This document shows positions 2-54,516 of a stretch of DNA of 64,000 nucleotides, one piece after another; position 1 is the stretch's first letter; each line of letters starts with the position of its first letter. Origin of the DNA: Vicinamibacterales bacterium (GTDB lineage: Bacteria > Acidobacteriota > Vicinamibacteria > Vicinamibacterales > 2-12-FULL-66-21); assembly GCA_035492775.1 (NCBI GenBank), contig DATJIW010000090.1, positions 6,737 to 70,736 on the forward strand, given 5' to 3'. A model generated the notes under the pieces. It ran no database searches. It had not been told where the DNA came from and saw only the letters and a program-made list of their open reading frames with translations. Both the position numbers and the translations under genes were made by a program.

Positions 2-1981
2 GCGCGCGATGCGTTCGACAAGGTCCGCGGCATGGTCACCGGACACCATACGCGTCCCAAAGGCGCGAGCACCATCACGCAGCAGCTGGCGCGCGGCCTC
101 TTCCCGCAGGAAGTGGGCTACGAGATCGGCGACGTGAGCCCGGAGCGGAAGGTGAAGGAAGCGCTCGTCGCCATCCAGATCGAGAAGCGCTACACGAAAC
201 ACGAGATCTTCGCGCTCTACGCCAACCAGATGTATCTCGGTGAAGGCGCATACGGGGTCGAGGCGGCGGCGCGCACCTATTTCGGCAAGTCGGCGAAGGA
301 CGTGAACCTGGACGAGGCCGCGATGATCGCCGGCCTGTTCCAGACATGGCGGAACGCGCCGACGGTCAACATGGAACGGGCAAAGGCGCGGCAGGCCTAC
401 GTGCTCCAGCAGATGGCGGACGACCGCTTCATCACGCAAAAGGAAGCCGACGCCGCCAAGGCGCGTCCCATCGTCCTCGCCGCCACCGCCAAACCAACCA
501 ACAGCATCGCGCCATACTTCCTGGAAGAGGTGCGGAAGGATCTCGAGTCGCGCTACGGCGCCAAATCCGTCTACGAGAACGGCTTGAGCGTGCAGACGTC
601 GCTCGACGTGAAACTGCAGGACGCCGCGAACCGCGCGTTGGACGAAGGCGTGCGGCGGATCGATCATCTGCATGGCTTCCGGAAGCCGCAGCGGAACGTC
701 ATCGCCGAGCACCACACGGTCGAGAATTTCAAGCACCCCCGGTGGGAGCATGCGTTCGAGATCAACGACATCGTCCCCGCCGTCGTGACGTCCGCCGATG
801 CGGCGAACATCCACCTTCGGGCGGGGGCGTACCGCGTCACGATCGACAAGAAAGGCTATGCGTGGACGCACAAGACGCCCGCACAGCTCGTCAAGGAGGG
901 CGACCTCGTCGACGCGAAACTCCTGACGCTCGACACGGCCGAGCACACCGCGACCGCGGCGCTCGATCAGCCGCCGCTCGTGGAGGGCGCCGTGCTTGCC
1001 GTCGACAATCACACAGGACAGATCAGGGCCATGATCGGCGGGTGGAACTTCGAGCGAAGCAAGTTCAACCGCTCGACCCAGGCGTTCCGGCAGGTCGGCT
1101 CGGCGTTCAAGCCGTTCGTGTACACGACGGCCATCGATCGAGGCTACACGCCGACGTCGATAATCGACGACGACCCGGTGAGCTTCCCGGCGGGACCCGG
1201 ACAGCCTCCGTACTCGCCGCAGAACTACGAGAAGGACTTCTGGGGACCGATTACGCTGCGTCGCGCGCTCGAGCACTCGCGCAACGTGCCGGCCGTGCGG
1301 CTGATGGACGCGCTCGGCCCCAAACAGGTCATCGCCTACGCGCGGCGCTTCGGTTTGTCGGCTCCGCTCCCGCCCTATCTCTCGGTGGCGATCGGATCCG
1401 CGGAGGAGACGCTCATCGAGATGACGAGCGCGTACTCGACGTTTCCGAACCAGGGCGTCCGGATGACGCCGTATTCGATCCTGAAGGTCACCGATCGGCA
1501 AGGGAACGTGCTGGAGGAAAACCGCCCGGAGCCGAAAGATGCGATTCGCGCGGACACCGCGTTCGTGATGGTGAACCTCCTGCGCGGCGTGGTCCAGCGC
1601 GGGACCGCCGCGCAGGCCGGATCGATTAACTGGCCGATCGCGGGCAAGACCGGCACGACCGACGACTACACGGATGCGTGGTTCATCGGGTTCGATCCGG
1701 ACATCACCGTAGGCGTCTGGGTGGGCTACGACCAGAAGAAAACGCTCGGCCGCGGGATGGAAGGATCGAGAGCGGCGCTCCCGATCTGGATCGACATCAT
1801 GAAGGCATACATCGATCACCGCACCGATGTGCCAAAATTCGAGCCGCCCAGCAACATCGTCTTCGTGTCGGTGGACAGGGATTCCGGCGCAGCGGTGGAC
1901 GCAGGCGCGCCAGGGTCGATCAGCGAGGCCTTCATCGCCGGCACACAGCCCGGGTCATTTGGGAGCATTAATCGTCATTGA
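2..1981 (+). CDS. mrcA: Class A penicillin-binding protein (PBP1A family; GT51 glycosyltransferase + transpeptidase), 5' end outside window
   Basis: Frame open from base 2. GT51 motifs GASTITQQLAR and EKRYTKHEIFALYANQMYLG. Transpeptidase SxxK (SAFK), SxN (HSRN) and KTG (AGKTGTT). Confidence 0.9.
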   Translation, partial: ARDAFDKVRGMVTGHHTRPKGASTITQQLARGLFPQEVGYEIGDVSPERKVKEALVAIQIEKRYTKHEIFALYANQMYLGEGAYGVEAAARTYFGKSAKDVNLDEAAMIAGLFQTWRNAPTVNMERAKARQAYVLQQMADDRFITQKEADAAKARPIVLAATAKPTNSIAPYFLEEVRKDLESRYGAKSVYENGLSVQTSLDVKLQDAANRALDEGVRRIDHLHGFRKPQRNVIAEHHTVENFKHPRWEHAFEINDIVPAVVTSADAANIHLRAGAYRVTIDKKGYAWTHKTPAQLVKEGDLVDAKLLTLDTAEHTATAALDQPPLVEGAVLAVDNHTGQIRAMIGGWNFERSKFNRSTQAFRQVGSAFKPFVYTTAIDRGYTPTSIIDDDPVSFPAGPGQPPYSPQNYEKDFWGPITLRRALEHSRNVPAVRLMDALGPKQVIAYARRFGLSAPLPPYLSVAIGSAEETLIEMTSAYSTFPNQGVRMTPYSILKVTDRQGNVLEENRPEPKDAIRADTAFVMVNLLRGVVQRGTAAQAGSINWPIAGKTGTTDDYTDAWFIGFDPDITVGVWVGYDQKKTLGRGMEGSRAALPIWIDIMKAYIDHRTDVPKFEPPSNIVFVSVDRDSGAAVDAGAPGSISEAFIAGTQPGSFGSINRH

Positions 1982-2215
1982 CGATTGGCGACTGAAGATT
2001 GGCGATTTTTAATTGGCGATTGGCGATTGGCGATTGGGAATCGACCATTGACGATTGGCGACTGAAGATTGGCGATTTTCAATTAGCGATTGGCAATTGG
2101 GAATCGACCATTGGCGATTGGCGACTGAAGATTGGCGATTTTCAATAAGCGATTGGCGATTGGCAGTGACAATTGGCGAATTCGATGATTGGCGAATCGA
2201 CGATTGGCGAGTGGT
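1976..2215. repeat. Tandem array of degenerate GATTGGC heptamers organised in three higher-order units (starts 1976, 2046, 2109)
   Basis: Direct reading: cattgacgattggcgactgaagattggcgatttt(t/c)aatt(g/a)gcgattggc...attgggaatcgac recurs at 70- and 63-nt spacing. The array starts on the PBP1A stop codon (TGA 1979-1981). Confidence 0.9.
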
Positions 2216-2391
2216 AAGGGACTGCCCCTGGGTTAACCCAGGTTGGTGAGTGTCAACCGCGGTTGTCGTTTATGCTCTCCGCCGGCGGGCCGACGATTGG
2301 CGGATTGGCGAGTGGTGAACCGCCTCCACCTGGGTTGACCGAAGTTGACGAGTGCAACCGCGGTTGTCGTTTATCCTCTCCGCCGGCGGGC
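2198..2391. repeat. Tandem duplication (93 nt + 101 nt) containing the 3' end of the four-helix-bundle ORF
   Basis: Cores 2248-2290 and 2350-2391 differ by one indel and one substitution (gagtg(t)caaccgcggttgtcgtttat(g/c)ctctccgccggcgggc). Both copies start cgacgattgg. Confidence 0.85.
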
Positions 2392-2784
2392 CGTGTTGAT
2401 CTGTTTGGCGAGATCCAGCCGCTGCGCCTGTCGTTCCTGGGCGGTTTTTCGCGACTTCACGAAGATCCGGGTTAGTTCGTCCGCCTCCTGGATGAGGTCC
2501 TGCGCCGAGTCGCGGGAGACCAGATTCGATCGAACCAGGAGTTCCAGCCACCCTTTCGATTCATCCGCCTCTTCGACGGCCACTCCGATTTTTGCGATGA
2601 ATTCCGCAGAACTTCGCGCGCGGCACGTCGCGCGGTAGTTGCTGTCCGTTGCGCCCGCGGCGTCCAGGAGCTGTTCGGCGACCTTCTGGGCTGCCAGAGT
2701 TCGAGGCAGGCTCTCACAGAACTTGATGACATCAGCGGCGAACTTCTGCGTCCGCTCCTGGAGTGCAACAGCCTTGGCATTCAT
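2371..2784 (-). CDS. Four-helix-bundle protein (23S rRNA intervening-sequence protein family, TIGR02436-like)
   Basis: 137-aa all-helical ORF from ATG 2784 (MNAKAVALQERTQKFAADVIKFCESLP...SNYRATCRARSSAEFIAKIGVAVEEADESKGWLELL). Codons upstream of 2784 in the listed ORF are repeat-encoded. Confidence 0.75.
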   Translation of the reverse strand: MNAKAVALQERTQKFAADVIKFCESLPRTLAAQKVAEQLLDAAGATDSNYRATCRARSSAEFIAKIGVAVEEADESKGWLELLVRSNLVSRDSAQDLIQEADELTRIFVKSRKTAQERQAQRLDLAKQINTARRRRG

Positions 2785-2810
2785 GACGACCGGCTTTGCA
2801 TCTGCCGCGC

Positions 2811-2936
2811 CAATCGTCAATCGCCAATGCCAATCGTCAATCGTCAATCGTCAATGCCAATCAGCAATCGTCAATGAGTAATCGCCAATCGCCAATCGTC
2901 AATCCCTAATCGGCAATCGCCAATCGCCAATCGTCA
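2811..2936. repeat. Tandem array of about 18 CAATCGY heptamers (reverse complement of the GATTGGC word)
   Basis: Direct reading: caatcgt caatcgc caatgc caatcgt ... caatccc taatcgg caatcgc caatcgc caatcgt. The array abuts the prfB stop codon (TAA, 2937-2939). Confidence 0.9.
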
Positions 2937-4077
2937 TTAGTCGATTTCCTCCTCCGTCGCCGCCGAGAGCGCCCCGGCGGCCTTCTTCATCAGGTACGTC
3001 TTGATGAAGAAATCGATGTCGCCGTCGAGTACGCGGTTGACGTCGCCCACCTGCTCCTTGGTCCGATGGTCCTTCACCATCTGGTACGGGTGCAGAACGT
3101 AGCTGCGGATCTGGCTGCCGAACGCGATGTCGCGCTTTTCCCCGCCGAGCTTTTCGAGCGTCGCCTGCTGCTCCTTCGTCCTCAGGTCGTACAGCCGCGC
3201 CTTCAGCACCTTCATCGCCTGCGCCCGGTTCTTGTGCTGCGACCGCTCGTTCTGGCACGAGACAACGATTCCGGTCGGCAGATGCGTGATGCGGACCGCC
3301 GAGTCCGTGACGTTCACGTGCTGGCCGCCGGCGCCGCTCGACCGGTAGGTGTCGATCCGCAGGTCCTTTTCCTCGATCGCCACATCGACGTCGTCGGGCA
3401 GTTCGGGCCAGACGTAGACCGACGCGAATGACGTGTGCCGCCGTGCGGCCTGGTCGAACGGCGAGATTCGCACCAGCCGGTGGACGCCGGCTTCGGCGAG
3501 CAGTAACCCGTATGCGTAGTCGCCGTAGACGGTAAAGGTCGCGCTCTTGATGCCCGCTTCGTCGCCCGGCTGCACTTCGATGACGTCCCGCTTGAAGCCG
3601 CGGCGTTCGGTCCATCGAAGGTACATGCGCAGCAGCATCTCGGCCCAGTCCTGCGACTCGGTGCCTCCGGCGCCCGGGTGAATCGTCACGATGGCGTTCT
3701 TGCGATCGTGCTCGCCGCCGAGCATTTTCTTCGTCTCGCCGGCGTCCACCTCGCGCGCGAGATCGGCAAGGCCGGCCGCGAGATCGTCGCCGACGGGCTC
3801 GCCGGCTTCCGCCCACTCCGTCAGAACGGCCAGGTCGTCGACGCGCCGTTTCAGCGATTCGCTCAACGCGCGGTCGTCTTCGAGCCGCCGCCGGCGCTGC
3901 AGCAGCTTCTGCGCCGCCGCCTGATCCTTCCAGAAGTCGGGTTCGCCTACACGCTCCTCGATCTTCCTCAGCTCGTCGGCCGGGCGTGTGGCGTCAAAGA
4001 TAGCTCCGCAGATCGGACGCGCGCTTTGCCAGGTCCTGATACTGCCGGAGCTGCTCCTCGAGATGCTGAACAGTCAT
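2937..4077 (-). CDS. prfB: Peptide chain release factor 2, expressed through a programmed +1 frameshift
   Basis: SPF-type body with GGQ motif (SGAGGQHVNVTDSAVRITH). A 27-codon leader from ATG 4077 ends at an in-frame TGA. A +1 shift reads on into ...LDATRPADELRKIEERVGEPDFWKDQ... and joins the listed ORF 2937..3866. Confidence 0.9.
3993..4007 (-). promoter_or_regulatory. prfB: RF2 autoregulatory +1 frameshift site (GGAG C TAT CTT TGA C)
   Basis: Minus-strand sequence tgcGGAGcTATCTTTGAC. CTT TGA C is the canonical RF2 shift heptamer, with an upstream SD-like GGAG. Confidence 0.85.
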
Positions 4078-4120
4078 AACGAATCCAATTCCCACCGCTG
4101 CAAGCTCAAGGCTCGCAGCG

Positions 4121-5485
4121 CTAATTGCGCCGGGTCAACAGAAGCATGATCGCCGTAATCGCCACGCCCGCCCAGCCGGCGACGTCTCCGATGTAACTGT
4201 AGATCGTGCGGTCCTCGATGAAACGCAGCTCGTCCACCATCACCGCGCTCTCGAACATGTTGGAGCGCTGCATGACGCGGCCGTACGGATCGACAAACCC
4301 GCTGATCCCCGTGTTCGCGGCGCGCGCCAGGTAGCGCCCCTCCTCGATTGCCCGCATCGATGCCTGCTCCCAGTGCTGGTACGCAGCGGACGTCCAGCCA
4401 TACCACGCGTCGTTCGTAATCGTCGTCAACAGCTCGCTCCCGTGGCGCACCGACGCGCGGATCAGGCTCGAGTAGATCACTTCGTAGCAAATCGCGGTGC
4501 TCGCGTCGTGCCCGGCGACCGGCAGCATGACGATGCTGGCGCCAGGCGTGAAGTCGGAAACCGCCTGGACGATCGGCCCGACGAAAAAGAGCAGCCGTTT
4601 CAGCGGCACGTATTCGCCGAACGGGACGAGGTGGATCTTGCGATAGACGGCGCCCGTTTTCCCGTCCGGTTCGACGAGGTATGCCGCGTTGTAATACCGC
4701 ACGTCGGGCGCCTGTCCGGCTATCGTCTGCACCGGTTCGACCTGGTCGCTGCCGATGAGGAGCGTGATGTGCGCCTGCTGCGCGAGCCGCCGGATCGCTG
4801 CACCGCCGGCGAGGTCCTGCTCGTACGGCAATGGTGTCGACGACTCGGGCCACAGGACGAACTGCGCGCCCCGCCCGATCGCTTCACGCGTCATGTTGAT
4901 GTAGCGGTCCATGATCGGACCGCGCGCCGCGCTGTCCCATTTCTGGTCCTGGGGGATGTTGCCCTGCAGAACGCCCACACGGATGGCCGTACCCGCCGAC
5001 GTCAAGCGGTGAGCGCGCACGCGAAATGCGCCCCAGACACCAATCGCGAGGACGATCCCGACCGCCGCCACGAGAGGCCGCCAGCGTTTGGACGTGGGCT
5101 CGAGGGCGAGATATGCGGCGCCCGCGCTGACGGACGCCACCAGGGCCGACAGACCATAGACCCCGGCGATGCTGGCGACCTGCGCCACGGGAATGACGGT
5201 GACCTGGCTATAACCGAGCAGCTCCCATGGAAAACCGTCCCAGATGTAGGTGCGCCCCATCTCGGTCGCAATCCACGACAGCGGGGCGAGCAGCAGCGCC
5301 GTCCGCCCGAAGGCTTTGGCGAAGCGCGCCTGGAATACCGCGAAAAGGCCCGGGAACAGCGAGAGATATGCCACGAGCATCAGCGCGGCAAACGCCGACG
5401 TCGGCGTCGACAGCCCGCCGAACGTCGTCATCGTCTGGACCAGCCAGTAGAGCGTCCCCCAGAAGTAGAACGCCCCGGTCGTCAC
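4121..5485 (-). CDS. lnt: Apolipoprotein N-acyltransferase; true N-terminus probably extends upstream to about 5638
   Basis: Multi-TM N-terminal half plus CN-hydrolase domain with E/K/C triad contexts (FVLWPESS, YRKIHLVPFGEY, STAICYEVIY). 5485 is the first canonical (GTG) start. Confidence 0.85.
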   Translation of the reverse strand: MTTGAFYFWGTLYWLVQTMTTFGGLSTPTSAFAALMLVAYLSLFPGLFAVFQARFAKAFGRTALLLAPLSWIATEMGRTYIWDGFPWELLGYSQVTVIPVAQVASIAGVYGLSALVASVSAGAAYLALEPTSKRWRPLVAAVGIVLAIGVWGAFRVRAHRLTSAGTAIRVGVLQGNIPQDQKWDSAARGPIMDRYINMTREAIGRGAQFVLWPESSTPLPYEQDLAGGAAIRRLAQQAHITLLIGSDQVEPVQTIAGQAPDVRYYNAAYLVEPDGKTGAVYRKIHLVPFGEYVPLKRLLFFVGPIVQAVSDFTPGASIVMLPVAGHDASTAICYEVIYSSLIRASVRHGSELLTTITNDAWYGWTSAAYQHWEQASMRAIEEGRYLARAANTGISGFVDPYGRVMQRSNMFESAVMVDELRFIEDRTIYSYIGDVAGWAGVAITAIMLLLTRRN

Positions 5486-8478: not shown

Positions 8479-10080
8479 CTAGCCTCCGCGCCTGATTCGC
8501 TCCTCCAGTTGGCGCGCCGCCAGAGACGACGGGTCAAGGGCGAGGGCGCGCTGCGCCTGGCTCCGCGCCGCGGGCAGATCTTTCAGCTGCAGATACGCGT
8601 CCCCCAGCGCGACACGCGCGGGCACGGTGTCCTGGCTCCAGATCGAAATCTTGAACGCATCCACCGCATCGCGGGGCCGGCCCTGGCGGATGTAAATCCG
8701 GCCGATCAGCAGGTGCGCTTCCGCTTCATATGGCGACAGGAACACGGCGCGGCGAAGCTCCGACAGCGCCTCGCGATCGTGTTCCTGCTCGTACAGCCGG
8801 CGGCCGCGGTCGAGATGATACTGCGCGACATCGCGCTGATCGCGCTGAGCGCTCGTGACCAGCGCCTGATCGACGGCCGTAAACCGGCGGTTCTCGAGGT
8901 CGTACCGCGTGCGTTCGAGTCCTCGCGGAAGCGCGTCTGAGCGGCGCTCCGCGTAGCGGGCGGATAATTGCGCGGCAAGTTCGCGCTCGCGGCCGGCCTC
9001 TACGGTGTTGCCCGCGGCATCCAGTTCCGCCGCCAGCACGAAATGCGCGTCGGCATCGGTCGGATTCCGGCGCACCGCTTCGCGGAGCCAGTAAAAGGCG
9101 GCCTGGGGATCGCGATCGAGCGCGTAGGCGTAACCCAGGTTGAACAGCAGATCCGTATCGTCCGGCTCAGCCTCCGCGGCCTTCGTGAAATAGTAGACCG
9201 GCTTGCCGGTTTCCGGCGTGGCGCCGCGCCGGAGCTGCACGATCCCGATGTTATTGAGGATGGCGGCATCCGTCCGCTCGTTCAGCAGCGTCTTGAACGT
9301 CTCGAACGCCTCCTCGTATTTGTTCAACTCGAGCTGCGAGATGCCGGTCAAGAACCGCGCGCGCCGCGCGTACGGCGACGCCGGGTCGATGTCCTTCAGC
9401 GCAGCAAGCGCCGCCGCCGGGTTGCCCTGGCTCTCGCGCACGTCCCACAACGCGATTCTGGCCGCGTCGTATTCGGGATCGCTCTTCAGCGCCGACTCGA
9501 GAAAGGCGACCTGCGTGCCCGGTTGCTCCGCGATGAGCCCCTTGACGTACTGCTCGAACGCCTGAAGCGGCGGAGCGTGGACGGACGCAGGCACCACCCC
9601 GCCAGGAACGGCGCGCCGGGCGAGCTTGCGGCCGACTACGAAGAGGTCGGCGAGGGCCCCGCTTTCGGAAATCTCAGGGTCTGCGCGGCCCTCTTCGAGA
9701 TGGATCGCGCGCGCGTGCAGCGTCAGTGTCCCGTCTTTCACCTGCACACGTCCGACGATCACCTGCGACGCGCCCACGATCTGGCCGACCTTGATGACGG
9801 TAGCCTCGCTGAGGCGCGTATTCGGCGGCAGGTGCAGCTGGTCGTACGCCCGCGTCCGCGTGGTCCGCGAGATCGCGCCAAGACCCCGCGCGTTCAGGTC
9901 GTCCGCGATCAGGACGGCGGTCGCGTCCCCCAGCCAATAGCTTCCGCCGTCGTTCGCCGGCGTTTCGAAAGGAACCACGAGGATCCGCGCCGACGGCAGC
10001 GCAGGAACCGAGTGGATCGGCGCCGACGCCGTCGACTGACGCGCGGTCAGCGCCACGATCATCAGCCAGCCGATCATCAT
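8479..10080 (-). CDS. Tetratricopeptide (TPR) repeat protein with signal peptide
   Basis: MMIGWLMIVALTARQSTASA signal-like start at 10080 (ATGA overlap with the upstream stop). Multiple TPR-like helical pairs in the C-terminal two thirds. Confidence 0.7.
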   Translation of the reverse strand: MMIGWLMIVALTARQSTASAPIHSVPALPSARILVVPFETPANDGGSYWLGDATAVLIADDLNARGLGAISRTTRTRAYDQLHLPPNTRLSEATVIKVGQIVGASQVIVGRVQVKDGTLTLHARAIHLEEGRADPEISESGALADLFVVGRKLARRAVPGGVVPASVHAPPLQAFEQYVKGLIAEQPGTQVAFLESALKSDPEYDAARIALWDVRESQGNPAAALAALKDIDPASPYARRARFLTGISQLELNKYEEAFETFKTLLNERTDAAILNNIGIVQLRRGATPETGKPVYYFTKAAEAEPDDTDLLFNLGYAYALDRDPQAAFYWLREAVRRNPTDADAHFVLAAELDAAGNTVEAGRERELAAQLSARYAERRSDALPRGLERTRYDLENRRFTAVDQALVTSAQRDQRDVAQYHLDRGRRLYEQEHDREALSELRRAVFLSPYEAEAHLLIGRIYIRQGRPRDAVDAFKISIWSQDTVPARVALGDAYLQLKDLPAARSQAQRALALDPSSLAARQLEERIRRGG

Positions 10081-13402: not shown

Positions 13403-14161
13403 ATGAAACCGCGCATCGGCATCACTCCCTGTTCGCACGTTGACGACTACGTCGAATCGGTCCGCGCTGCCGGCGGCGAGCCGATCGTCCTGCGCAATGA
13501 CGACCGTCCGGATGAAGTGCTGCACCGCGTCGATGGCATTCTGCTCACGGGGGGACCGGACGTCGACCCCGCGCTCTACCGGCAGCCGAAGCACGATTCG
13601 ACGGAAATCGATCCCGCACGCGATGCGTTCGAGGTTCCGCTGTCGCGCGCGGCGCTCTCGGACAACGTGCCGCTCTTTGCGATCTGCCGCGGTGTGCAGG
13701 TGTTGAACGTGGCCGCCGGCGGGACGCTGGTGCAGGACATTCCGACGCAGTCCTCGACGACGATCGATCACGCCATCCACCGGGCTCGAGACGCGCATGC
13801 GCACGACGTGCAGCTCGTCGAGGGCACGCGCCTCGCGTCGATCCTCGACGGACAGACGGCTGACGCGTGTTCCGTCAACAGCCGCCATCACCAGGCGGTC
13901 GGCGAAGTAGCCCCTTCGTTCGTCGTGTCCGCCGTGTCGCCCGACGGAATCGTGGAAGCGATCGAACGCCCCGACGCCGCCTTTTGCGTCGGCGTGCAGT
14001 GGCATCCCGAGAACTTCTGGCGCACCGGAGAGTTCCTGCCCCTGTTCCGCGCATTCATCGCCGAAGCAGGCCGCCGGGGGCGGCGCGGCGAAGCGCACGG
14101 ACGCCCGGGCGAGGCCACGGAGATTCAACTAAGAGGCCACGGAGGCCACGGAGGGCTATAA
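13403..14161 (+). CDS. Gamma-glutamyl-gamma-aminobutyrate hydrolase family protein (class I glutamine amidotransferase, peptidase C26)
   Basis: Nucleophile elbow ICRGVQVLNVAAGG and HHQAV histidine region. The last roughly 10 codons (...LRGHGGHGGL) are encoded by the 14111-14195 repeat. Confidence 0.8.
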   Translation: MKPRIGITPCSHVDDYVESVRAAGGEPIVLRNDDRPDEVLHRVDGILLTGGPDVDPALYRQPKHDSTEIDPARDAFEVPLSRAALSDNVPLFAICRGVQVLNVAAGGTLVQDIPTQSSTTIDHAIHRARDAHAHDVQLVEGTRLASILDGQTADACSVNSRHHQAVGEVAPSFVVSAVSPDGIVEAIERPDAAFCVGVQWHPENFWRTGEFLPLFRAFIAEAGRRGRRGEAHGRPGEATEIQLRGHGGHGGL

Positions 14162-14195
14162 ACAAAGAGGGCCAGAGGGCCAGAGGGCCAGAGGC
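14111..14195. repeat. Short tandem repeats: GAGGCCACG x3 then AGAGGGCC x3.5
   Basis: Direct reading gaggccacgg...aagaggccacggaggccacggagggctataaacaaagagggccagagggccagagggccagaggc. It lies between convergent stops at 14159-14161 and 14207-14209. Confidence 0.85.
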
Positions 14196-15509: not shown

Positions 15510-16202
15510 TTATTCGAACGCCAGCACGGGCAGGCCGGCGGCGTCGCGCACGCGGCGCTCGAACGCTGCGGCGGCAGCGGATTCGCGATCCGCCGCGGTC
15601 ATCCGTGCGGCGAACGGCGCAATGTCTTCCTGCGCAGCGGCGCGCATCGCGCGCGCGGTTTCGCCATCGATCTCACCGATCGCAGCCGCCGTCAGTCGGG
15701 CGTCGAGTGCCGACAGGCGTTCGAGCACCCGCGTACGCTCGTGTCCGCGGGCATTACGCGCGGCGGTCCGCATCGTATCGAGCTCGCGGACGGCATCGGC
15801 GAGCGCTGCGTCGAAGCCTTCGGACCGCCAGGGCCCGCCGCGCCGGGACGTCAGCCGCGCGATGACGCGGTCGAGGTGCGCCGGTAGCGAGTCGCGCCGG
15901 TGCGAGCTTTCGTCGGTACTTCCGCCTTCCGCCCCAACGCCCACGGCGCGCCGCCAGTTGTCGAAGAGATCGAGGATGTCGGCCTCGCAGAACTCGATCC
16001 GCACCGGACGCCGTCGCGGACCCTTCGCGTAGTAGCGATCGCAATACTGATCAATCCCTCTCTTCGCGAGCGCCAGCGGTACTCCCTGCTCCGCCCAGCC
16101 GCAGACGCGCTCGAATGCCGGGCCGACGATGCGAATGAGGTGCCCCTCGTTCTTCTGACACAAATACCCTTCGAGCTCCCGGCAGTATTCCGAATTCTGC
16201 AT
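15510..16202 (-). CDS. Hypothetical protein (Cys-rich N-terminal 72 aa, Ala/Arg-rich helical C-terminus)
   Basis: Uninterrupted 230-aa ORF 16 nt upstream of the methyltransferase gene. Cys at residues 7, 15, 34, 54 and 72. No family recognised. Confidence 0.55.
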   Translation of the reverse strand: MQNSEYCRELEGYLCQKNEGHLIRIVGPAFERVCGWAEQGVPLALAKRGIDQYCDRYYAKGPRRRPVRIEFCEADILDLFDNWRRAVGVGAEGGSTDESSHRRDSLPAHLDRVIARLTSRRGGPWRSEGFDAALADAVRELDTMRTAARNARGHERTRVLERLSALDARLTAAAIGEIDGETARAMRAAAQEDIAPFAARMTAADRESAAAAAFERRVRDAAGLPVLAFE

Positions 16203-16236
16203 CGCTGGTTCGAGACCTGGAATTGCTGGACGATTT

Positions 16237-16325
16237 CAATCTTCAATGCGCAATCTTCAATGCGCAATCTTCAATCGGCAATCTTCAATCCCTAATCTTC
16301 AATCGGCAGTCTTCAATCGCCAATG
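16237..16325. repeat. Tandem array with 14-nt period (CAATCTTCAATSSS, about 6 copies)
   Basis: caatcttcaatgcg x2, caatcttcaatcgg, caatcttcaatccc, taatcttcaatcgg, cagtcttcaatcgc. The array spans the coaX stop codon (16299-16301). Confidence 0.9.
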
Positions 16326-17117
16326 TTCGGTTCTTTGCCAGATCAACCGGAGCCCGTCGAGCGTGAGATTCTCGTCCACGCGCTCGATGGCGCGGCTTTC
16401 GCCGGAGAGCACATCTGCGAGTCCTCCGGTGCCGATGACGAGCGCGCGGTCGCCTCCGTCCAGTTCCGCACGGATGCGGCGTACCAGTCCATCGACGAGG
16501 TCAACGTAGCCGAAGAACAAACCCGCCTGCATCGCGGCCACGGTGTTCTGCCCGATCACGCCGGCCGGCTTCCGCACGTCCACGCGGGGAAGCCGCGCGG
16601 CGCGCTGAAAGAGCGCCTCCGCCGAGATGTTGATGCCCGGACAGATGACCCCTCCGATGTACTCGCCCGCCGACGACACCACGTCGAACGTCGTGCCGGT
16701 GCCGAAGTCGACGATGATGAGCGGGACCGCGGATTGACGGCCGTATTTCTCCCACGCCCCGGCCGCGTTCACGATCCGGTCGGCGCCCACGTCCGTGATC
16801 GGGTTGTAGCGGACGGGCATGCCGGCGTTCGTCGCATCGACGACGAACGCGGCGTGATGGAAGTAGCGCTGGCACATCTCCTCAATCGGCCGTGTCAGCG
16901 GCGGCACCACCGACGCGACGGCGATGCCGGCGAGTTCGGGAATCGGCACGTGCGCGGTCTCGAAGAGGCGCGTCACGAAAATGCCCAGCTCGTCCGCCGT
17001 GCGTTCGCGCAGGGCTGCCAGCCTCCAGCTGTGCGCGAGCCGGTCGCCTTCGAAGACGCCGATGGTGACGTTCGTGTTGCCGACGTCGAGCGCCAGCAGC
17101 CGCGGAGCTACTTCCAT
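16299..17117 (-). CDS. coaX: Type III pantothenate kinase
   Basis: MEVAPRLLALDVGNTNVTIGVF N-terminus at ATG 17117, plus DFGTGTTFD and GGLA motifs. The listed ORF's upstream extension overlaps birA. Confidence 0.85.
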   Translation of the reverse strand: MEVAPRLLALDVGNTNVTIGVFEGDRLAHSWRLAALRERTADELGIFVTRLFETAHVPIPELAGIAVASVVPPLTRPIEEMCQRYFHHAAFVVDATNAGMPVRYNPITDVGADRIVNAAGAWEKYGRQSAVPLIIVDFGTGTTFDVVSSAGEYIGGVICPGINISAEALFQRAARLPRVDVRKPAGVIGQNTVAAMQAGLFFGYVDLVDGLVRRIRAELDGGDRALVIGTGGLADVLSGESRAIERVDENLTLDGLRLIWQRTEHWRLKTAD

Positions 17118-17911: not shown

Positions 17912-18762
17912 AGCGGTTCCACGTCGAGACGGAGGTCGGCGGCCGGCGCGGCCTGCGTCACCTCGCCGACGGACAGGTAATCGGCGCCGGTCGCCGCAAG
18001 CGCGTCGACGGCGTCGAGGTCGAACGGTCCCGCGACGGCCACCTGCGCACGCCCTCTTGACCGTCGTACGAGCTCGCGCAGATCGTCGACGCTCAGGCGA
18101 TCGGCGACGATCACCGACGCGCCCGCGGACACTGCCGCATCAGCCTCCGTCAGGGAGTGCACCTCCACCTCGATGGGCATGTCGGGGTTGGCCGCAGCCA
18201 TGCGACGGACCGCCTCCGCCACGCTGCCGGCCAGGCCGAGATGGTTCCTCTTGACCGTCACGCCGACGTCCAGCGAACCGCGATGATTCGCGCCGCCGCC
18301 GGCGCGGACGGCGTACTGCTCCAGCGCGCGCAACGTCGGTGTCGTCTTGCGCGTATCCAGCACGACCACGCGTCCGGCGGTCTGGTCAACGAACCGCCGC
18401 GTCAGTGTCGCGATTCCGGAGAGCCGCTCGAGGAAGTTCAGAGCCGTCCGCTCTGCGGTCAGCATGGAACCAGCGAGGCCCTCGACCTCGGCCACGCAGA
18501 CGCCGGCGCTGCACGGCTGCCCGTCGGCCACATGCGCGTGAAAGACGCACGCGGGATCGAGTTGACGGAAGGCCTCCGCCGCGACGGCCAGCCCCGCGAT
18601 CACACACGCGGAGCGCGCCACGATGGAGCCCCGCGCGCGCAGATCCGGCGGCACGATCGCTTCCGTCGTCACGTCGCCCCACCCGAGATCCTCGGCGAGC
18701 GCGCGGCGGACGACCTCTCGATACAGCGCCGGATCGAGCGCCTCGAACGGAACGGACTTCAC
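17908..18762 (-). CDS. nadC: Nicotinate-nucleotide diphosphorylase (carboxylating)
   Basis: QPRTase pattern (ALAEDLGWGDVTT..., LDTRKTTPTLR, ...MLDN-like C-terminal TIM region). GTG 18762 overlaps the valS stop (GTGA). Confidence 0.85.
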   Translation of the reverse strand: MKSVPFEALDPALYREVVRRALAEDLGWGDVTTEAIVPPDLRARGSIVARSACVIAGLAVAAEAFRQLDPACVFHAHVADGQPCSAGVCVAEVEGLAGSMLTAERTALNFLERLSGIATLTRRFVDQTAGRVVVLDTRKTTPTLRALEQYAVRAGGGANHRGSLDVGVTVKRNHLGLAGSVAEAVRRMAAANPDMPIEVEVHSLTEADAAVSAGASVIVADRLSVDDLRELVRRSRGRAQVAVAGPFDLDAVDALAATGADYLSVGEVTQAAPAADLRLDVEPL

Positions 18763-21329
18763 GCGCCGCGCTCCTGAGGCGACGAATCCGGTGCAGCGAA
18801 CCGGACATCGACGCTGAACGTGTCCGATGTCTCGATCGAGAGCTCCCGGACGAGGGCCACGGCGCACAAGTCTGCGCGGGCGGAATCGAGCAGCGGGCGG
18901 TCGCGTTCGGTGAGGCGCAGCACCGCCAGTTCGACCGGCGTTTTCATCGGCCGCTGCTCCTCTGATTTTTTCTTCCGGATCTCACCGAGCACGTTTGCTG
19001 CGAGTTCGAGCGTCCGCACGTCGTCTTCACGCTCGCCGCCTGCGGCCTCGAACAATTCATCGAAAGAAGGCCAGGCTGCGGTGTGAATGGAGCCTGGACG
19101 CCACCAGGACCAGACCTCTTCCGTCACGAATGGAAGAAACGGCGCGAACAGCCGGAGCAGCGACGACAGCGCGGTGAGAAGTGCCGCGTTCGCAGAACCG
19201 GCGCCCGCCGGACCCTGGTCGCCGTAGCGGCGCGATTTCACGAGCTCCAGATAGTTATCGCAGAAGAACCAGAACAGCGACTCCGCCCGTTCCAGCACGC
19301 GCGAGTAGTTGTAGTCCTCCAGATCCGCCGTCGCGTCGCGCACCAGGCGCCCGAGCAGCGTGAGCAGGCCGCGATCGATCGGTTCCACGATTTCGCCCCG
19401 AGGTTCCGGGCTGGCGAGCACGAACTTCGATGCGTTCAGCAGCTTGATCGCGAGCCGTCGGCCGACCTTCATCTGGCCAACGTCGAACGCCGTGTCGGCG
19501 CCGGGCCGGCCGCTCGCCGCCCAGTAGCGCACACCGTCCGACCCGTGCTCCTCGAGGAGCGCCATCGGCGTGACGACGTTGCCCTTGGACTTCGACATCT
19601 TCTTGCGGTCGGGATCGAGAATCCAGCCCGAGATCGCCGCGTGCTTCCACGGCAGCGTGTCGAATTCCAGATGCGAGCGCAGCACCGTGGAAAACAGCCA
19701 CGTGCGGATGATGTCGTGCGCCTGCGGACGGACGTCCATCGGAAAGACGCGGGCGAACAGGTCCTCGTCCGCGATCCAGCCTCCAGCGATCTGCGGGGAA
19801 AGCGACGACGTGGCCCAGGTGTCCATGACGTCAGGATCCCCACTGAAACCGCCGGGCTGGTCGCGCTGCTCCGCGCGGTACCCCTCCGGCACATCGGTCG
19901 ATGGATCGACGGGGAGACGCTCCTCCGGCGGAACGATCGGATGCGCGTAATCCCGGCTGCCATCCGGCAGTACGGGGTACCACAGCGGGAAGGGGACGCC
20001 GAAGAACCGCTGGCGGCTGATGCACCAGTCTCCGTTCAGACCGTTGATCCAGTTCTCCAGCCGCGCCTGCATGTAGGGGGGATGCCAGCAGAGTTCCTTC
20101 GCACGCGCCAGCAACGCATCGCGGAACGTCATGGTCTTGATGAACCACTGTCGGCTGGTCACGATTTCGAGCGGCCGGTCCCCTTTTTCGTAGAACTTGA
20201 CCGCATGCGTGATGGGGCGCGGGTCGCCTATCAGATCGCCGCTTTCGCGCAGCAGCTCGGCGATCTTCGATCTCGCCTTCGCCGCGGAGAGGTTCGCGAG
20301 CTGGTCGTACGCCTGCTGGGCGCGCGAGGGCTCGCGCGATTCCCAACCGTCATTTCCCCATTGCACGGGCCGCAGGGCGCCGTTCGCCTGGATGATCGCG
20401 CGCACCGGAAGCGACAGCGCCCGCCACCAGACCACGTCGGTGACGTCACCGAACGTGCAGATCATCGCGATCCCGGATCCTTTCTCGGGATCGGCCAGTT
20501 CGTGCGGCCTGATCGGCACGCGCACGCCGAAGAGCGGCGTGATGACATCGGTGCCGAAGAGCGGTTTGTACCGCTCGTCGTCTGGATGCGCCACGAGCGC
20601 GACGCACGCCGGGATCAACTCAGGGCGGGTGGTTTCAATCTCCACGGAACCCTGGTCGGCCCTCTGGAAGCGGATGCGATGATAGGCGCCAGGCTGCTCT
20701 CGATCCTCGAGCTCCGCCTGGGCCACGGCCGTGCGGAAGTCGACGTCCCACAGGGTGGGGGCCTCGAGCTGATAAGCGAGGCCTTTGCTGAGCAGGCGCA
20801 GAAACGAGAGCTGCGACACCTTCTGCGCGTCACGGCCGATCGTCGCGTACGTCATGCCCCAGTCGACCGACAGGCCGAGATATTTCCACAGCGCTTCGAA
20901 TGCCTTTTCGTCCTCGGCGGTGAGCCGCGCGCACAACTCGATGAAGTTCGGACGCGACACCGAGAGGGGATGCTTCTCCGGTTTCGCCGGCGGCTGGAAG
21001 TCCGGGACGTACGCCAGAGACGGATCACACCGGACGCCGTAGTAGTTCTGCACGCGCCGCTCCGTCGGCAGCCCGTTGTCGTCCCATCCCATCGGATAAA
21101 ACACTGCCTTGCCGCGCATCCGCTGAAAGCGCGCGATGACGTCCGTGTGCGTGTACGAGAAGACGTGGCCGACGTGCAGCGATCCGCTGACAGTCGGCGG
21201 CGGCGTGTCGATCGAATAGACTCCTTCGCGCGGACGCGACCGATCGAACCTGTAAACGCCGTCAGCGGCCCATCGCTCCATCCATTTTTTTTCGAGTCCT
21301 TCGAGGGCAGGCTTTTCTGGAACAGTCAA
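18759..21329 (-). CDS. valS: Valine--tRNA ligase
   Basis: HIGH-type motif [19 protein letters not shown] and KMSKS. Proposed TTG start at 21329 ([20 protein letters not shown]). Farther-upstream codons of the listed ORF are repeat-encoded ([11 protein letters not shown]). Confidence 0.9.
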
Positions 21330-21333: not shown

Positions 21334-21429
21334 AACTCCCAACTCCCAATTCCCAACTCCCAATTCCCAACTCCCAAACCCCAACTCCCCAATTCCCAAC
21401 TCGCACTTCCCAGTTGCCGATTGGGAGTT
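21334..21429. repeat. Tandem array of AACTCCC/AATTCCC heptamers ending in one inverted unit (GATTGGGAGTT)
   Basis: Direct reading. 21334-21361 is the 28-mer AACTCCCAACTCCCAATTCCCAACTCCC, also found at 54404-54431 and inverted at 53772-53799. Confidence 0.95.
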
Positions 21430-21430: not shown

Positions 21431-22360
21431 TCAACCTCTTTTAAGTCGTTCGATTTCTTCACGCACGAGACGTTCGGCGGCTTCGAGGACTACGCCGCGC
21501 AGGGTCGAGTCCTGGAGCCGGGCAAGAACGCGATCGGCAATCGCGTCGATCAGGGCCTCGGGATCGGGGGGCGCGGGTCCCGTCCGCTCTCCGGCCGGCG
21601 CCGAGTGGGCGACCCGGCCCTCGGCGGTCAGCAGCGCCGCAAAGGCGTCGGCCAGCGACGGCGGTATTGCTCCGGCCGACGCAGGTGCCGCGGCGCGGTC
21701 AGCCGGTGGTGGCATCGCGTCAGGTTCCGCCGTGCGGGGCGCCGCCGCACGCGCCGTGACGGCGGCGTCGAGCCGGTCGAAGTACGCCTCGAGCGGATCG
21801 TCGGATCGGGCGCGGCCTGGCTGGTCCGGCGGAGCGGGCGGCGGCTCCTGGATCGGTTCGTATCGCGCGAGCTCGGCCCCCGGTGCCACGCCAGCGTGAT
21901 TCGCCGGCGGCGGCTCCCGCCGTACCGGCGGGACGGGCGGCCGCACGGGTCCCTGAGCCGTCGGCCCGGCGGCCCACAGGTCGGCGGGGCGATTGCCCAG
22001 CAGCAGATCCTTGACGCGATTGATGACCAGCTGCGGCTCGAACGGCTTCACGAGCACGCCGTCGCAGCCCGCGGCACGCGCGCGCGATTCGTCGATCGGC
22101 TCGAAGGCGCCGGTGAGCAGAAGCACCGGCACGTGCGACAGCTGCGGATGCGATTTGACGAACGCGGCGACTTCGTAGCCGTCGCGTTCGGGCATGCCGA
22201 CGTCCGCCAGCACGATGTCCGGACGCACACGCTCGGCCTGCTCGATCGCGGCCTGGCCGTTGCCGACGGTGATGACCTCTATGTTCTCGTCGGCGAACGT
22301 CAGCTCGATGACGCGCTGGATCGTGATGCTGTCGTCGGCAAGCAGCAGCTTGTGGGGCAT
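21431..22360 (-). CDS. Response regulator (CheY-like receiver domain with Pro/Ala-rich C-terminal extension)
   Basis: [17 protein letters not shown]...[17 protein letters not shown]...LLTGAFEP...VLVKPF receiver signature. No DNA-binding output domain recognised. Confidence 0.8.
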
Positions 22361-22794: not shown

Positions 22795-24455
<1,661 letters not shown>

Positions 24456-25904: not shown

Positions 25905-25930
25905 AGGGCGTCAGTCGTCAGTGACCAGTT

Positions 25931-25966
25931 CAAAAGGATCGGCCGCGCGGCCGATCCTTTTTCTTT
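25931..25966. terminator. Bidirectional Rho-independent terminator between gdh and the VWFA gene
   Basis: aaaaGGATCGGCcgcgGCCGATCCtttttctttt: GC-rich 8-bp stem (extendable by A:T pairs), 4-nt loop, T-run on the + strand and A-run giving U-run on the - strand. Confidence 0.8.
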
Positions 25967-36259: not shown

Positions 36260-36266
36260 TCACTGT

Positions 36267-36296
36267 GCTGAATGCCGAATGCCGGAGGCATTCAGC
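36267..36296 (-). terminator. Hairpin after the IHF/HU gene (10-bp stem GCTGAATGCC/GGCATTCAGC, 10-nt loop), no U-tract
   Basis: gctgaatgcc gaatgccgga ggcattcagc. The loop repeats the heptamer GAATGCC. Confidence 0.35.
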
Positions 36297-36698: not shown

Positions 36699-36925
36699 TG
36701 GTGCGCCGTGCTCCGTGCTCCGTGCTCTGTGCTAGTGCGCCGTGCTCGGTGCCAGTGCTCCGGTGCCAGTGCTCCGTGCTCGTGCACCGGGACTCAGCAC
36801 TCCGGACGGAGCACCGAGCACCAAGCACCGAGCACCCGGATCGGGCACCCCGGACGGAGCACCGAGCACCAAGCACCCGGATTGGCACCCCGGACGGAGC
36901 ACCGAGCACCGCGCACCGAGCACCG
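36699..36925. repeat. Large imperfect palindrome built from heptamers: (GTGCTCN)n left arm, (GAGCACC)n right arm with about 47-nt higher-order repeats
   Basis: Left arm 36699-36788 gtgctcc gtgctcc gtgctct.... Right arm 36802-36925 has ccggacggagcaccgagcaccaagcacc...cggat(c/t)gg(g)cacc repeated 2.7 times. Confidence 0.9.
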
Positions 36926-47232: not shown

Positions 47233-47290
47233 GGTGAAATGGTGACGATGGTCTCAATGCACTGGATTCACCAACTCACCCGGTCACCAA
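47233..47290. repeat. Inverted word arrays with 8-nt period: (GGTGA-N3)x2-3 then (TCACC-N3)x3 between convergent stops
   Basis: ggtgaaat ggtgacga tggtctca atgcactgga ttcaccaa ctcacccg gtcaccaa. It starts right after the rluB TGA and ends 4 nt before the scpB stop. Confidence 0.7.
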
Positions 47291-52297: not shown

Positions 52298-52306
52298 ATT
52301 ATACCA
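52298..52306 (-). promoter_or_regulatory. Extended -10 promoter element TGGTATAAT upstream of uvrC
   Basis: Minus strand reads gcTGgTATAATgaagg..., about 40 nt upstream of the uvrC ATG (52256). Confidence 0.45.
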
Positions 52307-52311
52307 GCGGC

Positions 52312-53108: not shown

Positions 53109-53111
53109 CGC

Positions 53112-53678: not shown

Positions 53679-53698
53679 GGGCGCCTGTCGAGAACCGG

Positions 53699-53799
53699 AA
53701 GTTGGACCTGGATTGGGAGTTTGGGAGTTGGGATCGGGGGTTAGACCTGAACTGCGCGTTGGACCTGAATTGGGAGTTGGGAATTGGGAGTTGGGAGTT
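53699..53799. repeat. TTGGGAG-word array with internal 21-nt duplication; last 28 nt are the exact inverse of 54404-54431
   Basis: gttggacctg(g/a)attgggagtt occurs at 53701 and 53758. 53772-53799 is GGGAGTTGGGAATTGGGAGTTGGGAGTT. Confidence 0.95.
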
Positions 53800-53814
53800 A
53801 ATCACCACGATACC

Positions 53815-54384
53815 CTACTGCCCGAGCCGTGGATCGAAGCAATGCCGGCATCTCGCTTCGTAAGTGCCCTGCGCCCCGACGAGCACCCGCTCGCTGCTCG
53901 CGACGAGCCGCTGCGTGTGGTTGGCGGGCGCACCGCAGACCATGCAGATCGCCAGCGTCTTCGAGATGTATTCAGCGATCGCGAGCAGCTGCGGCATCGG
54001 CTCGAACGGCTTGCCCAGATAGTCCTGATCGAGCCCGGCGACGATGACGCGTTTGCCCTGATCGGCGAGCGTCGTGCACACGGCGGGCAGCTCGACATCG
54101 AAGAACTGCCCCTCGTCGATCCCGACGACGTCGGTCTCCGGGCGCACTTTCTCCAGCAGCTCGCGCGAGCTCGACACGTTCTCGGCTTCGATCCGCATGG
54201 CGCTGTGCGAGGTGACGTGGTCCTCGCCGTAACGGTCGTCGATCCGCGGCTTGAAGATCTGGACTCGCTGGCGGGCAATCTGGGCGCGGCGGAGACGGCG
54301 GATCAACTCCTCACTCTTGCCGCTGAACATGCTGCCGGCGATGACTTCAATCCAGCCGCCGGTGGGCCTGTGGGTGATCTCCAT
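53815..54384 (-). CDS. tdk: Thymidine kinase
   Basis: ATG 54384 gives [30 protein letters not shown] (P-loop). C-terminal zinc motif CMVCG...CRHC. Upstream listed codons are repeat-encoded. Confidence 0.9.
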
Positions 54385-54400
54385 ATGTGGACGGGCAATG

Positions 54401-54497
54401 CTCAACTCCCAACTCCCAATTCCCAACTCCCGATTGTTCAGGGCCGACGCCGAATTCGAGGTCGAATTGGGAATTGGGAGTTGGGAATTGGGAGTTG
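54401..54497. repeat. Inverted word arrays (CTCCCAA arm, 44-nt spacer, TTGGGAG arm) able to form a 22-bp perfect stem
   Basis: 54410-54431 (caactcccaattcccaactccc) is the exact reverse complement of 54476-54497 (gggagttgggaattgggagttg). Confidence 0.95.
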
Positions 54498-54516
54498 AAA
54501 AAATGCCCGCAAAGAT

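Follow-up and report, generated by a model that had tools for sequence, protein, structure and literature searches.

Heptanucleotide satellite arrays at gene 3' ends in Vicinamibacterales and a composite element enclosing a four-helix-bundle gene

Ten intergenic loci in a 64-kb stretch of DNA from a Vicinamibacterales bacterium (Acidobacteriota; contig DATJIW010000090.1; the whole stretch analysed is hereafter called the window) are heptanucleotide satellite arrays, of the kind described as STRR (short tandemly repeated repetitive) sequences or heptameric long simple sequence repeats (SSRs). They mostly consist of an array together with its reverse complement. Such arrays occupy spacers at gene 3' ends across the order Vicinamibacterales. 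Two of the ten, 1976-2215 and 2811-2936, belong together as arms of one composite element, which encloses a TIGR02436/PF05635 gene encoding a four-helix-bundle protein. The most interesting lead is that this module, i.e. a four-helix-bundle gene between inverted heptamer arrays, is found across phyla. To our knowledge the over-representation of heptamer arrays in bacterial genomes, noted since 2007, is still unexplained.

Short tandem arrays in the window

Arrays were mapped with Tandem Repeats Finder (TRF). The initial annotation, made from the sequence alone, had described ten arrays built on one grammar, a degenerate short word in tandem, often followed by the same word inverted. TRF recovers nine of them at the same coordinates; it gives no row at 47233-47290, which is merely a weak heptamer palindrome. 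The ten loci are not uniform in grammar. The period is 7 or 14 at eight of them (TRF rows 1977-2214, 2808-2933, 16235-16328, 21334-21412, 36266-36284, 36701-36925, 53713-53799 and 54403-54497). The array 14111-14195 is composed of 9- and 8-mers (periods 9 and 8 at 14133-14194). A second-level periodicity, also part of that description, is present at 2019-2179 (63 nt), 36816-36917 (40 nt) and 16237-16328 (28/42 nt). At a score of at least 50 the window yields nine period-7 rows and twenty windows simulated with a first-order Markov model yield none; the arrays are therefore non-random. They comprise at least 6 word families in 64 kb.

Long words are shared between loci, as had been reported. 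The 28-mer AACTCCCAACTCCCAATTCCCAACTCCC is found exactly at 21334 and 54404 and inverted at 53772 (0 expected); it lies at outer array ends and resembles a terminal repeat. The 12-mer CAATCCCTAATC is found exactly at 2900 and 16286, which is likewise not expected by chance.

Proximity to stop codons was confirmed for every array: the distance is 0-22 nt, and at three loci the stop codon is inside the array (PBP1A TGA at 1979-1981, coaX at 16299-16301, and the GATase, i.e. amidotransferase, at 14159-14161). Pfam also bears out the flanking genes that had been named (PBP1A, prfB, GATase, coaX, response regulator, HU/IHF, rpsA, rluB, scpB, tdk and efp). Genes were called by a codon-bias model trained on the related sequence described below, and start positions are approximate. 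Among the window spacers of at least 40 nt, arrays are present in 3/5 convergent, 7/17 tandem and 0/8 divergent ones.

The eight loci outside the composite element are the following.

14111-14195, + strand: atypical array, 9-mer GAGGCCACG in 2.4 copies plus a separate copy, then 8-mer AGAGGGCC in 3.6 copies (TRF, Pfam)
16237-16325, - strand: unpartnered array, GATTGAA/GATTGCC/GATTGCG in gene sense (TRF periods 7, 14 and 28)
21334-21429, - strand: array, (GGGAGTT/GGGAATT)n in gene sense (TRF, exact 28-mer)
36267-36296, - strand: small hairpin, two heptamers and their inverse, GCTGAAT/GCCGAAT ... ATTCAGC (fold)
36699-36925, - strand: long heptamer-periodic palindrome, (GGTGCTC)n then (GAGCACN)n in gene sense (TRF, fold)
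47233-47290, no strand assigned: weak heptamer palindrome, GGTGAAA TGGTGAC ... TTCACCA ... GGTCACC (seen by reading the sequence)
53699-53799, - strand: unpartnered array, (AACTCCC)n in gene sense, C-rich (TRF, inverted 28-mer)
54401-54497, - strand: heptamer-periodic hairpin, (AAYTCCC)4 ... (GGGARTT)4, with the outer closing stem GCGGGCA/UGCCCGU

At 14111-14195 the 9-mers encode the C-terminal tail of the amidotransferase, and the 8-mers occupy the 45-nt convergent spacer up to the stop of a tRNA methyltransferase gene (14207). The array 16237-16325, which takes in the coaX stop and lies upstream of gene 15510-16202, is of the GATTGNN family, i.e. it has the word of the composite element's arms 13 kb away, and it has the 12-mer in common with 2900-2911. 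That at 21334-21429 lies between the response-regulator stop (21431-21433) and a class-I aminoacyl-tRNA synthetase gene. The small hairpin 36267-36296 separates the HU/IHF stop (36304) from the HIT start (36259), and 36699-36925, the longest array of the window in the orthologue comparison, fills the spacer from rpsA (stop 36947) to HU/ihfB (start 36663). The palindrome 47233-47290 occupies the convergent rluB/scpB spacer and is unchanged in the near-identical strain L001 (L-numbers are labels of compared loci). Finally, 53699-53799, with a second-level repeat of about 55 nt, is 3' of the tdk stop (53815), and 54401-54497 follows the efp stop (54517) and precedes the start of tdk (ATG 54384 or TTG 54405).

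A four-helix-bundle gene between two inverted arrays

The composite element lies between prfB and the PBP1A gene and has the following parts.

2811-2936, - strand: 5' arm, (ATTGNCG)n in the sense of prfB and the enclosed gene (TRF period 7, 18.3 copies)
2371-2784, - strand: gene for a four-helix-bundle protein of 137 aa (TIGR02436/PF05635, S23p, Avd-like; Pfam E=9.6e-13, NCBIfam E=3.4e-20)
2202-2393, no strand assigned: tandem duplication, 101-nt unit, 1.9 copies, 85% identical (TRF)
1976-2215, - strand: 3' arm, (CGNCAAT)n in the sense of the enclosed gene (TRF period 7, 33.7 copies; period 63, 2.6 copies)

The 5' arm begins directly 3' of the prfB stop (2937-2939) and ends 26 nt before the ATG at 2784, and the 3' arm, read on the + strand, starts within the PBP1A stop codon. 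The PF05635 gene sits in the loop between them. In the predicted fold of the 965-nt minus-strand transcript, from the prfB stop to the PBP1A stop, 111 pairs join one arm to the other; cofolding the two arms gains -99 kcal/mol, compared with -20 +/- 5 for shuffled arms. The duplication 2202-2393, which takes in the last 20 nt or so of the gene and two CGCCAAT-type units, is a local rearrangement within the cassette.

The initial annotation had stated that no mobilising gene lies in the window, overlooking this gene between its first two arrays. The product matches PDB entry 2rld, deposited with five chains (E=7.9e-12), and has no PADLOC match among known defence-system models. The setting of Avd genes in diversity-generating retroelements (DGRs), beside a reverse transcriptase and with template and variable repeats, was not found here, the neighbours being prfB and the PBP1A gene. 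The element shares the architecture of the 23S rRNA intervening sequences, which carry an S23p open reading frame (ORF), but is located between protein genes; Rfam gives no rRNA or other family anywhere in the window. This link to the rRNA intervening sequences through an S23p-type cassette is the most informative one.

Arrays at gene 3' ends across the order

An rpsA-based scan of species-representative genomes gave 80 loci, i.e. 1.58 Mb of related sequence, with rpsA 80-94% identical. Nearly all are labelled Acidobacteriota, Acidobacteria gp6 or Vicinamibacterales metagenome-assembled genomes; one is titled Bifidobacterium breve and is evidently a mislabelled record. An exact look-up of EF-P gave eight soil-metagenome contigs nearly identical to the window, whereas no exact match was returned for the proteins of tdk, read from the TTG start, and of gene 4121-5485.

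In the 1.58 Mb, period-7 arrays number 259 in spacers and 50 in coding DNA, spacers making up 14% of the sequence. Period 7 is dominant in spacers, followed by periods 9 (38), 8 (33) and 14 (32). Taking the spacers of at least 60 nt in the 80 related species, arrays occupy 42.6% of the convergent, 30.8% of the tandem and 12.3% of the divergent ones; the divergent spacers are on average twice as long. Within tandem spacers the array begins a median 5 nt past the upstream stop and ends a median 22 nt before the next start, being nearer the stop in 83 cases and nearer the start in 33. The association with gene 3' ends, first proposed from the window, is thus general.

An inverted partner, defined as at least two reverse-complement copies of the word within 250 nt, accompanies 168 of the 241 period-7 arrays, compared with 21 for the complement-only control. 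A typical element is thus palindromic, with arms of tandem heptamers. The words themselves are very diverse, with 125 distinct canonical ones among the 241 arrays, and have 55% G+C as against 66% for the genome. Two sites of one locus have identical words in 10.6% of comparisons and two sites from different species' loci in 1.6%, i.e. identical words are 6.7 times commoner within a genome. Besides, the exact 28-mer recurs in a non-orthologous spacer of L014, a species about 81% identical. Both results support the dispersal that the initial annotation had proposed.

Turnover at orthologous spacers

Comparison of orthologous spacers, suggested in the initial annotation, reveals both presence/absence and length polymorphism. 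For the rpsA-ihfB/HU spacer in 79 species, the fold has z <= -3 in 55, and lag 7 gives the best autocorrelation in about 60. The GGTGCTC word of the window is replaced elsewhere by GGGTTCG, GGTTCAC, CCAGCTT, ACGTGCN, CCAGTTT, GGGATTT, GGGATTA, GGCTAAG, GGTGRCT, GGAGGCC and more. For the HU-HIT spacer (window 36267-96), roughly 15 species have the GCTGAAT/ATTCAGC word (a loose pattern matched 18 of 78 spacers, some spuriously), and the others have different words or no spacer. Species pairs with about 95% identity differ in the copy number of units, and some arrays are completely replaced by another word or another palindrome. The two arms can also change in concert: CCAGCTT in L028 is CCCGCTT in L025 in all units, with the complement altered in the other arm.

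At the scale of a population, 53699-53799 differs from L001 by an indel of about 57 nt between second-level repeats, in flanks 99.6-99.9% identical, and 54401-54497 is identical in nine contigs (the window and the eight metagenome contigs). Hypervariability between strains was therefore rejected as a general property, since 54401-97 is invariant and only 53699-53799 differs.

Other structures were seen in these spacers. A G+C-rich palindrome of the type GTAGCGCGGGACTGAAGTCCCGCGCTAC stands in place of the heptamer hairpin between rpsA and ihfB in L009, L010, L015, L017 and L018, and between HU and HIT in L027; it may be a REP-like (repetitive extragenic palindrome) family. In L028 a dispersed palindrome, CACCACAGAGTTAACGGAG ... 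CTCCGTTAACTCTGTGGTG, is found in two spacers where L025, about 95% identical, has heptamer arrays (4385-4504 and 8906-8939). The loop of the rpsA-ihfB hairpin of L086 (about 1550-1870) holds an insert of about 130 nt, in which no gene or ORF was recognisable.

Folding, termination and translation signals

Several arrays fold better than shuffles in transcript sense. The most significant are 54401-97 (dG -74.1, z = -9.6) and 36699-36925 (dG -171.5, z = -5.9), followed by 36267-96 (dG -18.9, z = -3.4); 21334-21429 is weakly significant (z = -3.0), owing to a short terminal stem.

The initial annotation had proposed that the arrays are either terminators without a U-tract or stems that stabilise or process the 3' untranslated region (UTR); the tests of strand asymmetry and orientation given below lent neither any support. 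The first of these ideas, that the arrays are factor-independent terminators which do without a U-tract and replace the canonical ones in a high-G+C lineage, accounts for the 3'-end enrichment, strongest between convergent genes, and for the strong stems. It is also consistent with the chance frequency of canonical terminator-like sites in the first 20 kb (14 matches vs 12.2 expected, the heptamer hairpins not being among them). We nevertheless find it quite improbable. Many arrays lie in apparent operons with gaps of 20 nt to the next start (rpsA-ihfB, efp-tdk), and their stems far exceed the length of terminator stems. No T-run was found 3' of any window array (at 54401-97 a T-run precedes the stem), and no strand asymmetry is seen. 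Moreover, 25931-25966, between convergent genes, is a textbook bidirectional intrinsic terminator with a U-tract (AAAAGGATCGGCCGCGCGGCCGATCCTTTTTCTTTT), which suggests that U-tracts are used by the polymerase. This terminator is preceded, at about 25910-25930, by a short run of heptamers (CGTCAGT CGTCAGT GACCAGT).

A Rho loading site was considered from the C-rich and unstructured 53699-53799; it was rejected as a general rule because unpartnered arrays have no orientation bias.

GGGAGTT arrays end exactly at candidate TTG starts in three places, i.e. 21329 (the class-I aminoacyl-tRNA synthetase gene), 54405 (an alternative tdk start) and cmk in L014 (about 8285), with GGGAG 6-7 nt upstream (6 nt at 21329, from the last unit of 21334-21429). 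The last units may serve there as ribosome-binding site. These three cases, and the resemblance of the word to the G-quadruplex-forming repeats of Xanthomonas and Nostoc (PMC4692102), would fit a broader role of the arrays as sequence-specific translation signals (a GGGAG Shine-Dalgarno-like motif with TTG starts) or as G-quadruplexes, as proposed for the Xanthomonas GGGAATC. This reading seems very improbable, since it concerns a single word family out of at least six, the word in question is reversed after tdk (53699-53799) and there is no overall orientation bias.

A hairpin after the stop codon, or tolerated satellite DNA

The explanation that we propose, and which in our judgement stands an even chance, is that these are STRR-type arrays that evolve by slippage and arm copying and act as RNA hairpins after stop codons. 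Arrays gain and lose 7-nt and higher-order units and both arms change in concert, which the comparisons above show in part. Replication slippage and arm-to-arm copying by intrastrand template switching would be the likeliest causes. Because of slippage and arm copying, words would drift or be replaced quickly while hairpin and position persist. The arrays would be co-transcribed with the upstream gene, and pairing of their RNA arms would give stems, from 15 bp to over 100 bp long, that start a few nt after the stop codon. Such stems could mark off or shield the 3' end of the upstream mRNA, either by blocking 3' exonucleases or by offering RNase III a double-stranded substrate. In the composite element, RNase III may release the four-helix-bundle mRNA from the prfB transcript, as in the excision of 23S rRNA intervening sequences. 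The arrays would abut stops because only the non-essential 3' part of the spacer tolerates them. A stop triplet is present, on one strand or the other, in about half of the words, and the 7-nt period would bring it into all three frames within 21 nt, so that an ORF running into an array would soon end. Stop triplets as a selected function were rejected, their share among the words (48.5%) being that expected (48.9%).

Several observations count against this explanation. About 30% of arrays have no inverted partner. Four window arrays do not fold better than shuffles: 14111-14195 (z = -1.3), 16237-16325 (z = -0.8), 47233-47290 (z = -1.3) and 53699-53799, which is predicted to be unstructured (z = +2.0). 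The rpsA-ihfB spacer is nearly gone in 8 of the 79 species, so the hairpin is dispensable. In 105 array-bearing tandem spacers the sense and antisense strands do not differ significantly in stability (-1.2 kcal/mol, p = 0.13), nor do they differ in G-U pairs (398 vs 404), and among unpartnered arrays a G-rich sense strand is as frequent as a C-rich one (21 vs 18). Selection at the RNA level cannot be claimed because of this lack of strand asymmetry; the hairpin role is inferred from predicted folds and array position, as are slippage and template switching from the patterns of change.

The same results suit a selfish or neutral satellite DNA without function, which expands where it is tolerated and is purged from promoters, 5' UTRs and coding DNA, and thus builds up in 3' spacers. 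We regard this as possible, though on the unlikely side. Besides the absence of strand asymmetry and orientation bias, it is consistent with the arbitrary and highly diverse words (125), with their lower G+C, with the fast turnover at about 95% identity and the length polymorphism within a population, and with the species that have no spacer at the orthologous site. On the other hand, orthologous spacers remain occupied across an order-level radiation, an unrelated G+C-rich palindrome often replaces the absent array (the five rpsA-ihfB cases above), the array starts a median 5 nt past the stop, and the frequent inverted pairing demands a mechanism or selection. Array position thus speaks for a function at the 3' ends of messages, but tests at the level of sequence do not separate such a function from tolerated selfish DNA. 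A hairpin and a position that persist while the sequence turns over provide a natural experiment on the evolution of intergenic structure.

The module in other genomes

Detectable homologues of the four-helix-bundle protein number 2340, mostly on very short contigs. A metagenome scan for homologues gave 80 loci, with 60 genes for which both flanks were present. Heptamer arrays are found on both sides of 58 of these 60, with the same word inverted in 38. Among 1288 Vicinamibacterales genes, taken as baseline at a slightly stricter TRF threshold, 2.3% have two-sided arrays and 0.7% the same word inverted. Close homologues are preceded by (G)ATTGNCG and followed by its complement; at 47-56% identity the words are GATTTNC or GATTAAT. 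The upstream neighbour is co-directional at 49 of 59 loci and the downstream neighbour convergent at 41 of 62. The cassettes therefore occupy the same 3'-end spacers as the gene-less arrays.

The same arrangement was found on plasmids. All ten plasmid genes inspected that are annotated 'four helix bundle protein' have heptamer arrays in both flanking spacers, mostly inverted (10/10). Their hosts, Planktothrix, Pseudanabaena, Gloeocapsa, Nostoc (three strains), Dolichospermum, Chlorohelix, Bernardetia and Treponema, belong to four other phyla, so that the gene with its inverted arrays has been observed in five bacterial phyla. Plasmid genes of this kind are located in DISARM, DUF1156-HEPN and cas operons, and no reverse transcriptase is among the annotated neighbours of the plasmid homologues. 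IVP genes had previously been noticed within cas loci, where the repeats are not mentioned. In an incomplete search of the literature we found no described link between S23p/four-helix-bundle genes and inverted heptamer arrays other than a remark on the Coxiella intervening sequence.

These data raise the possibility of a mobile family centred on the four-helix-bundle gene, in which the cassette is autonomous, the protein recognises the arrays, and gene-less arrays are non-autonomous derivatives or remnants whose words drift after gene loss. The contrast between the array-flanked homologues (58/60 and 10/10) and the 2.3% baseline points that way, as does the location of the genes within unrelated operons. 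The GATT(G) core is kept around homologues down to 44-56% identity and across phyla, including in Nostoc sp. C057. Gene-less arrays with the word of a nearby gene are also known: the distant paralogue of L009 is flanked by GACGAAN arrays, a word present in two gene-less arrays of the same 15-kb contig; on the Planktothrix plasmid a 28-copy gene-less array, 7 nt 3' of the drmA stop, has the word of a cassette 10 kb off; and in the window 16237-16325 carries the cassette word. The occurrence of the exact 28-mer at the ends of arrays, both at three loci of the window and in a further species, is likewise in its favour.

However, only two four-helix-bundle genes were found among 185 array sites when 1.5 Mb of related sequence was searched with tblastn and a family hidden Markov model, and a local link of every array to such a gene was rejected for this reason. 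Most words in a genome do not match that of the resident cassette. Of 19 distal arrays near homologues, 6 match the cassette word within 1 mismatch, not clearly above the same-locus background of 18%, and the idea that distal arrays carry the cassette word was rejected as well. The protein has no recognisable catalytic domain. No direct duplication flanks 54401-54497, the locus examined for a target-site duplication; its flanks are inverted (GCGGGCA/TGCCCGT). On balance we judge a mobile family of this kind unlikely.

In its widest and more speculative form, which seems rather unlikely to us, heptamer arrays would be the footprint of a widespread selfish TIGR02436/PF05635 cassette inserting after stops, in operons and, in some lineages, in 23S rRNA. 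Its protein would recognise or propagate the repeats, and gene-less hairpins would be its non-autonomous descendants. The module offers a testable handle on the function of S23p/four-helix-bundle genes, annotated in thousands of genomes and also in cas, DISARM and other operons. It also bears on why 7 is the favoured period of long bacterial repeats.

Contigs with a four-helix-bundle gene are mostly 0.5-3 kb long and end in arrays; heptamer repeats apparently break short-read assemblies. They also seed spurious ORFs. In Planktothrix agardhii plasmid p1 (L183) an annotated 'hypothetical protein' (23479-23673) lies almost wholly in a 28.6-copy AATCGTA array (23470-23669) and is probably a spurious ORF. 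Both effects are of practical concern. The same plasmid provides a second kind of small intercistronic gene framed by repeat hairpins: a GIY-YIG nuclease gene within the DISARM operon (18543-19393), which has inverted arrays with repeats of 23-32 nt (TGTCATTCTGAGT...) on its two sides.

Relation to known repeats

Among the long simple repeats of bacteria, heptamers show the strongest over-representation, for which slippage of the polymerase was proposed as the cause (Mrazek et al. 2007, as summarised in PMC4679880). Of the kinds described so far, the cyanobacterial STRR heptamers and the Xanthomonas GGGAATC repeats come closest to the present arrays. In Vicinamibacterales such arrays had not previously been described, and with them Acidobacteriota, a major phylum of soils, joins the few lineages known to be rich in heptamer satellites.

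GGGAATC repeats of Xanthomonas are 89-93% intergenic, lie 28 nt from the upstream ORF end and 160 nt from the next ORF, and are 7-8% in divergent spacers; each genome has about 70 inverted pairs, potential stem-loops (Rehm et al. 2015, PMC4692102). Like the window arrays, they and the Nostoc GGGGA(C/T)T are degenerate tandem 7-mers, mostly intergenic, nearer the upstream ORF end and rare in divergent spacers (PMC4692102). Inverted pairs, and a length and sequence that differ between close species, are common to them and to the Vicinamibacterales repeats, and GGGAATC nearly equals the GGGARTT word of the window. Differences nevertheless appear. Xanthomonas and Nostoc have one dominant word per genome. 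In Vicinamibacterales a stretch of 64 kb contains at least 6, the 241 arrays have 125 between them, and the share of paired palindromes is higher (70%). G-quadruplexes were proposed for the former (PMC4692102), whereas most Vicinamibacterales words cannot form them, and no link to a four-helix-bundle gene is reported there.

The cyanobacterial STRR sequences resemble the window arrays in their 7-bp units, their location in intergenic or intercistronic spacers and their capacity to form hairpins (PMC2670836). For those between hupS and hupL, transcript stabilisation, translational coupling or termination have been proposed, none being demonstrated (PMC2670836). They belong to heterocystous cyanobacteria and use a few fixed words (PMC2670836), while the present arrays are from Acidobacteriota and change words rapidly.

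TAACTGA heptamers of marine Beggiatoaceae, cyanobacteria and Bacteroidetes are also intergenic, tandem and patchily distributed across phyla (MacGregor 2015, PMC4679880). They lie just 5' of start codons, in one orientation and 2-6 copies, and are almost never inverted (PMC4679880), in contrast to the Vicinamibacterales arrays, which abut stops and are mostly palindromic.

The arrays had initially also been likened to a family of REPs or miniature inverted-repeat transposable elements (MITEs). REPs and bacterial interspersed mosaic elements (BIMEs; PMC3333891, PMC2817692) are indeed extragenic palindromes at gene 3' ends, in tandem and convergent spacers and in many copies, possibly selfish with secondary RNA roles. 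REP units are 20-40 nt long with a conserved family sequence and no 7-nt periodicity, whereas the window arms are tandem 7-mers of many unrelated words. REPs are further linked to a Y1 transposase, the REP-associated tyrosine transposase (RAYT); none was seen among the array-flanking genes, the only ones scanned with Pfam. With 125 words, the arrays are far too diverse for such a family, and the single locus examined shows no target-site duplication.

The 23S intervening sequences of Coxiella and Leptospira resemble the window cassette in having a PF05635 gene in the loop of a long stem with complementary termini (PMC4990558). In Coxiella the S23p ORF lies within a 28-bp stem and RNase III cuts at the first repeat; 3-4 tandem heptamers, of strain-variable copy number, are found just 5' of the ORF (PMC4990558). 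Intervening sequences bearing S23p are regarded as selfish, and those in rRNA have been shown to be cut out by RNase III (PMC4990558). The window cassette lies between protein-coding genes and not in a 23S rRNA helix, and its heptamer arms, of 125 and 240 nt, compare with a stem of 28 bp. RNase III processing is demonstrated for the rRNA intervening sequences and would apply to the cassette by analogy only.

Other observations

Oppositely oriented arrays of one word flank tdk (53815-54384), at 53770-53799 and 54403-54431. Four-helix-bundle genes aside, only 9 of the 1288 genes are so flanked, tdk among them.

The prfB gene (2937-4073, - strand) has two reading frames, with the canonical CTTTGAC motif of +1 programmed frameshifting at 3993-3999; the seeming 254-nt 'spacer' at 3867-4120 is therefore coding.

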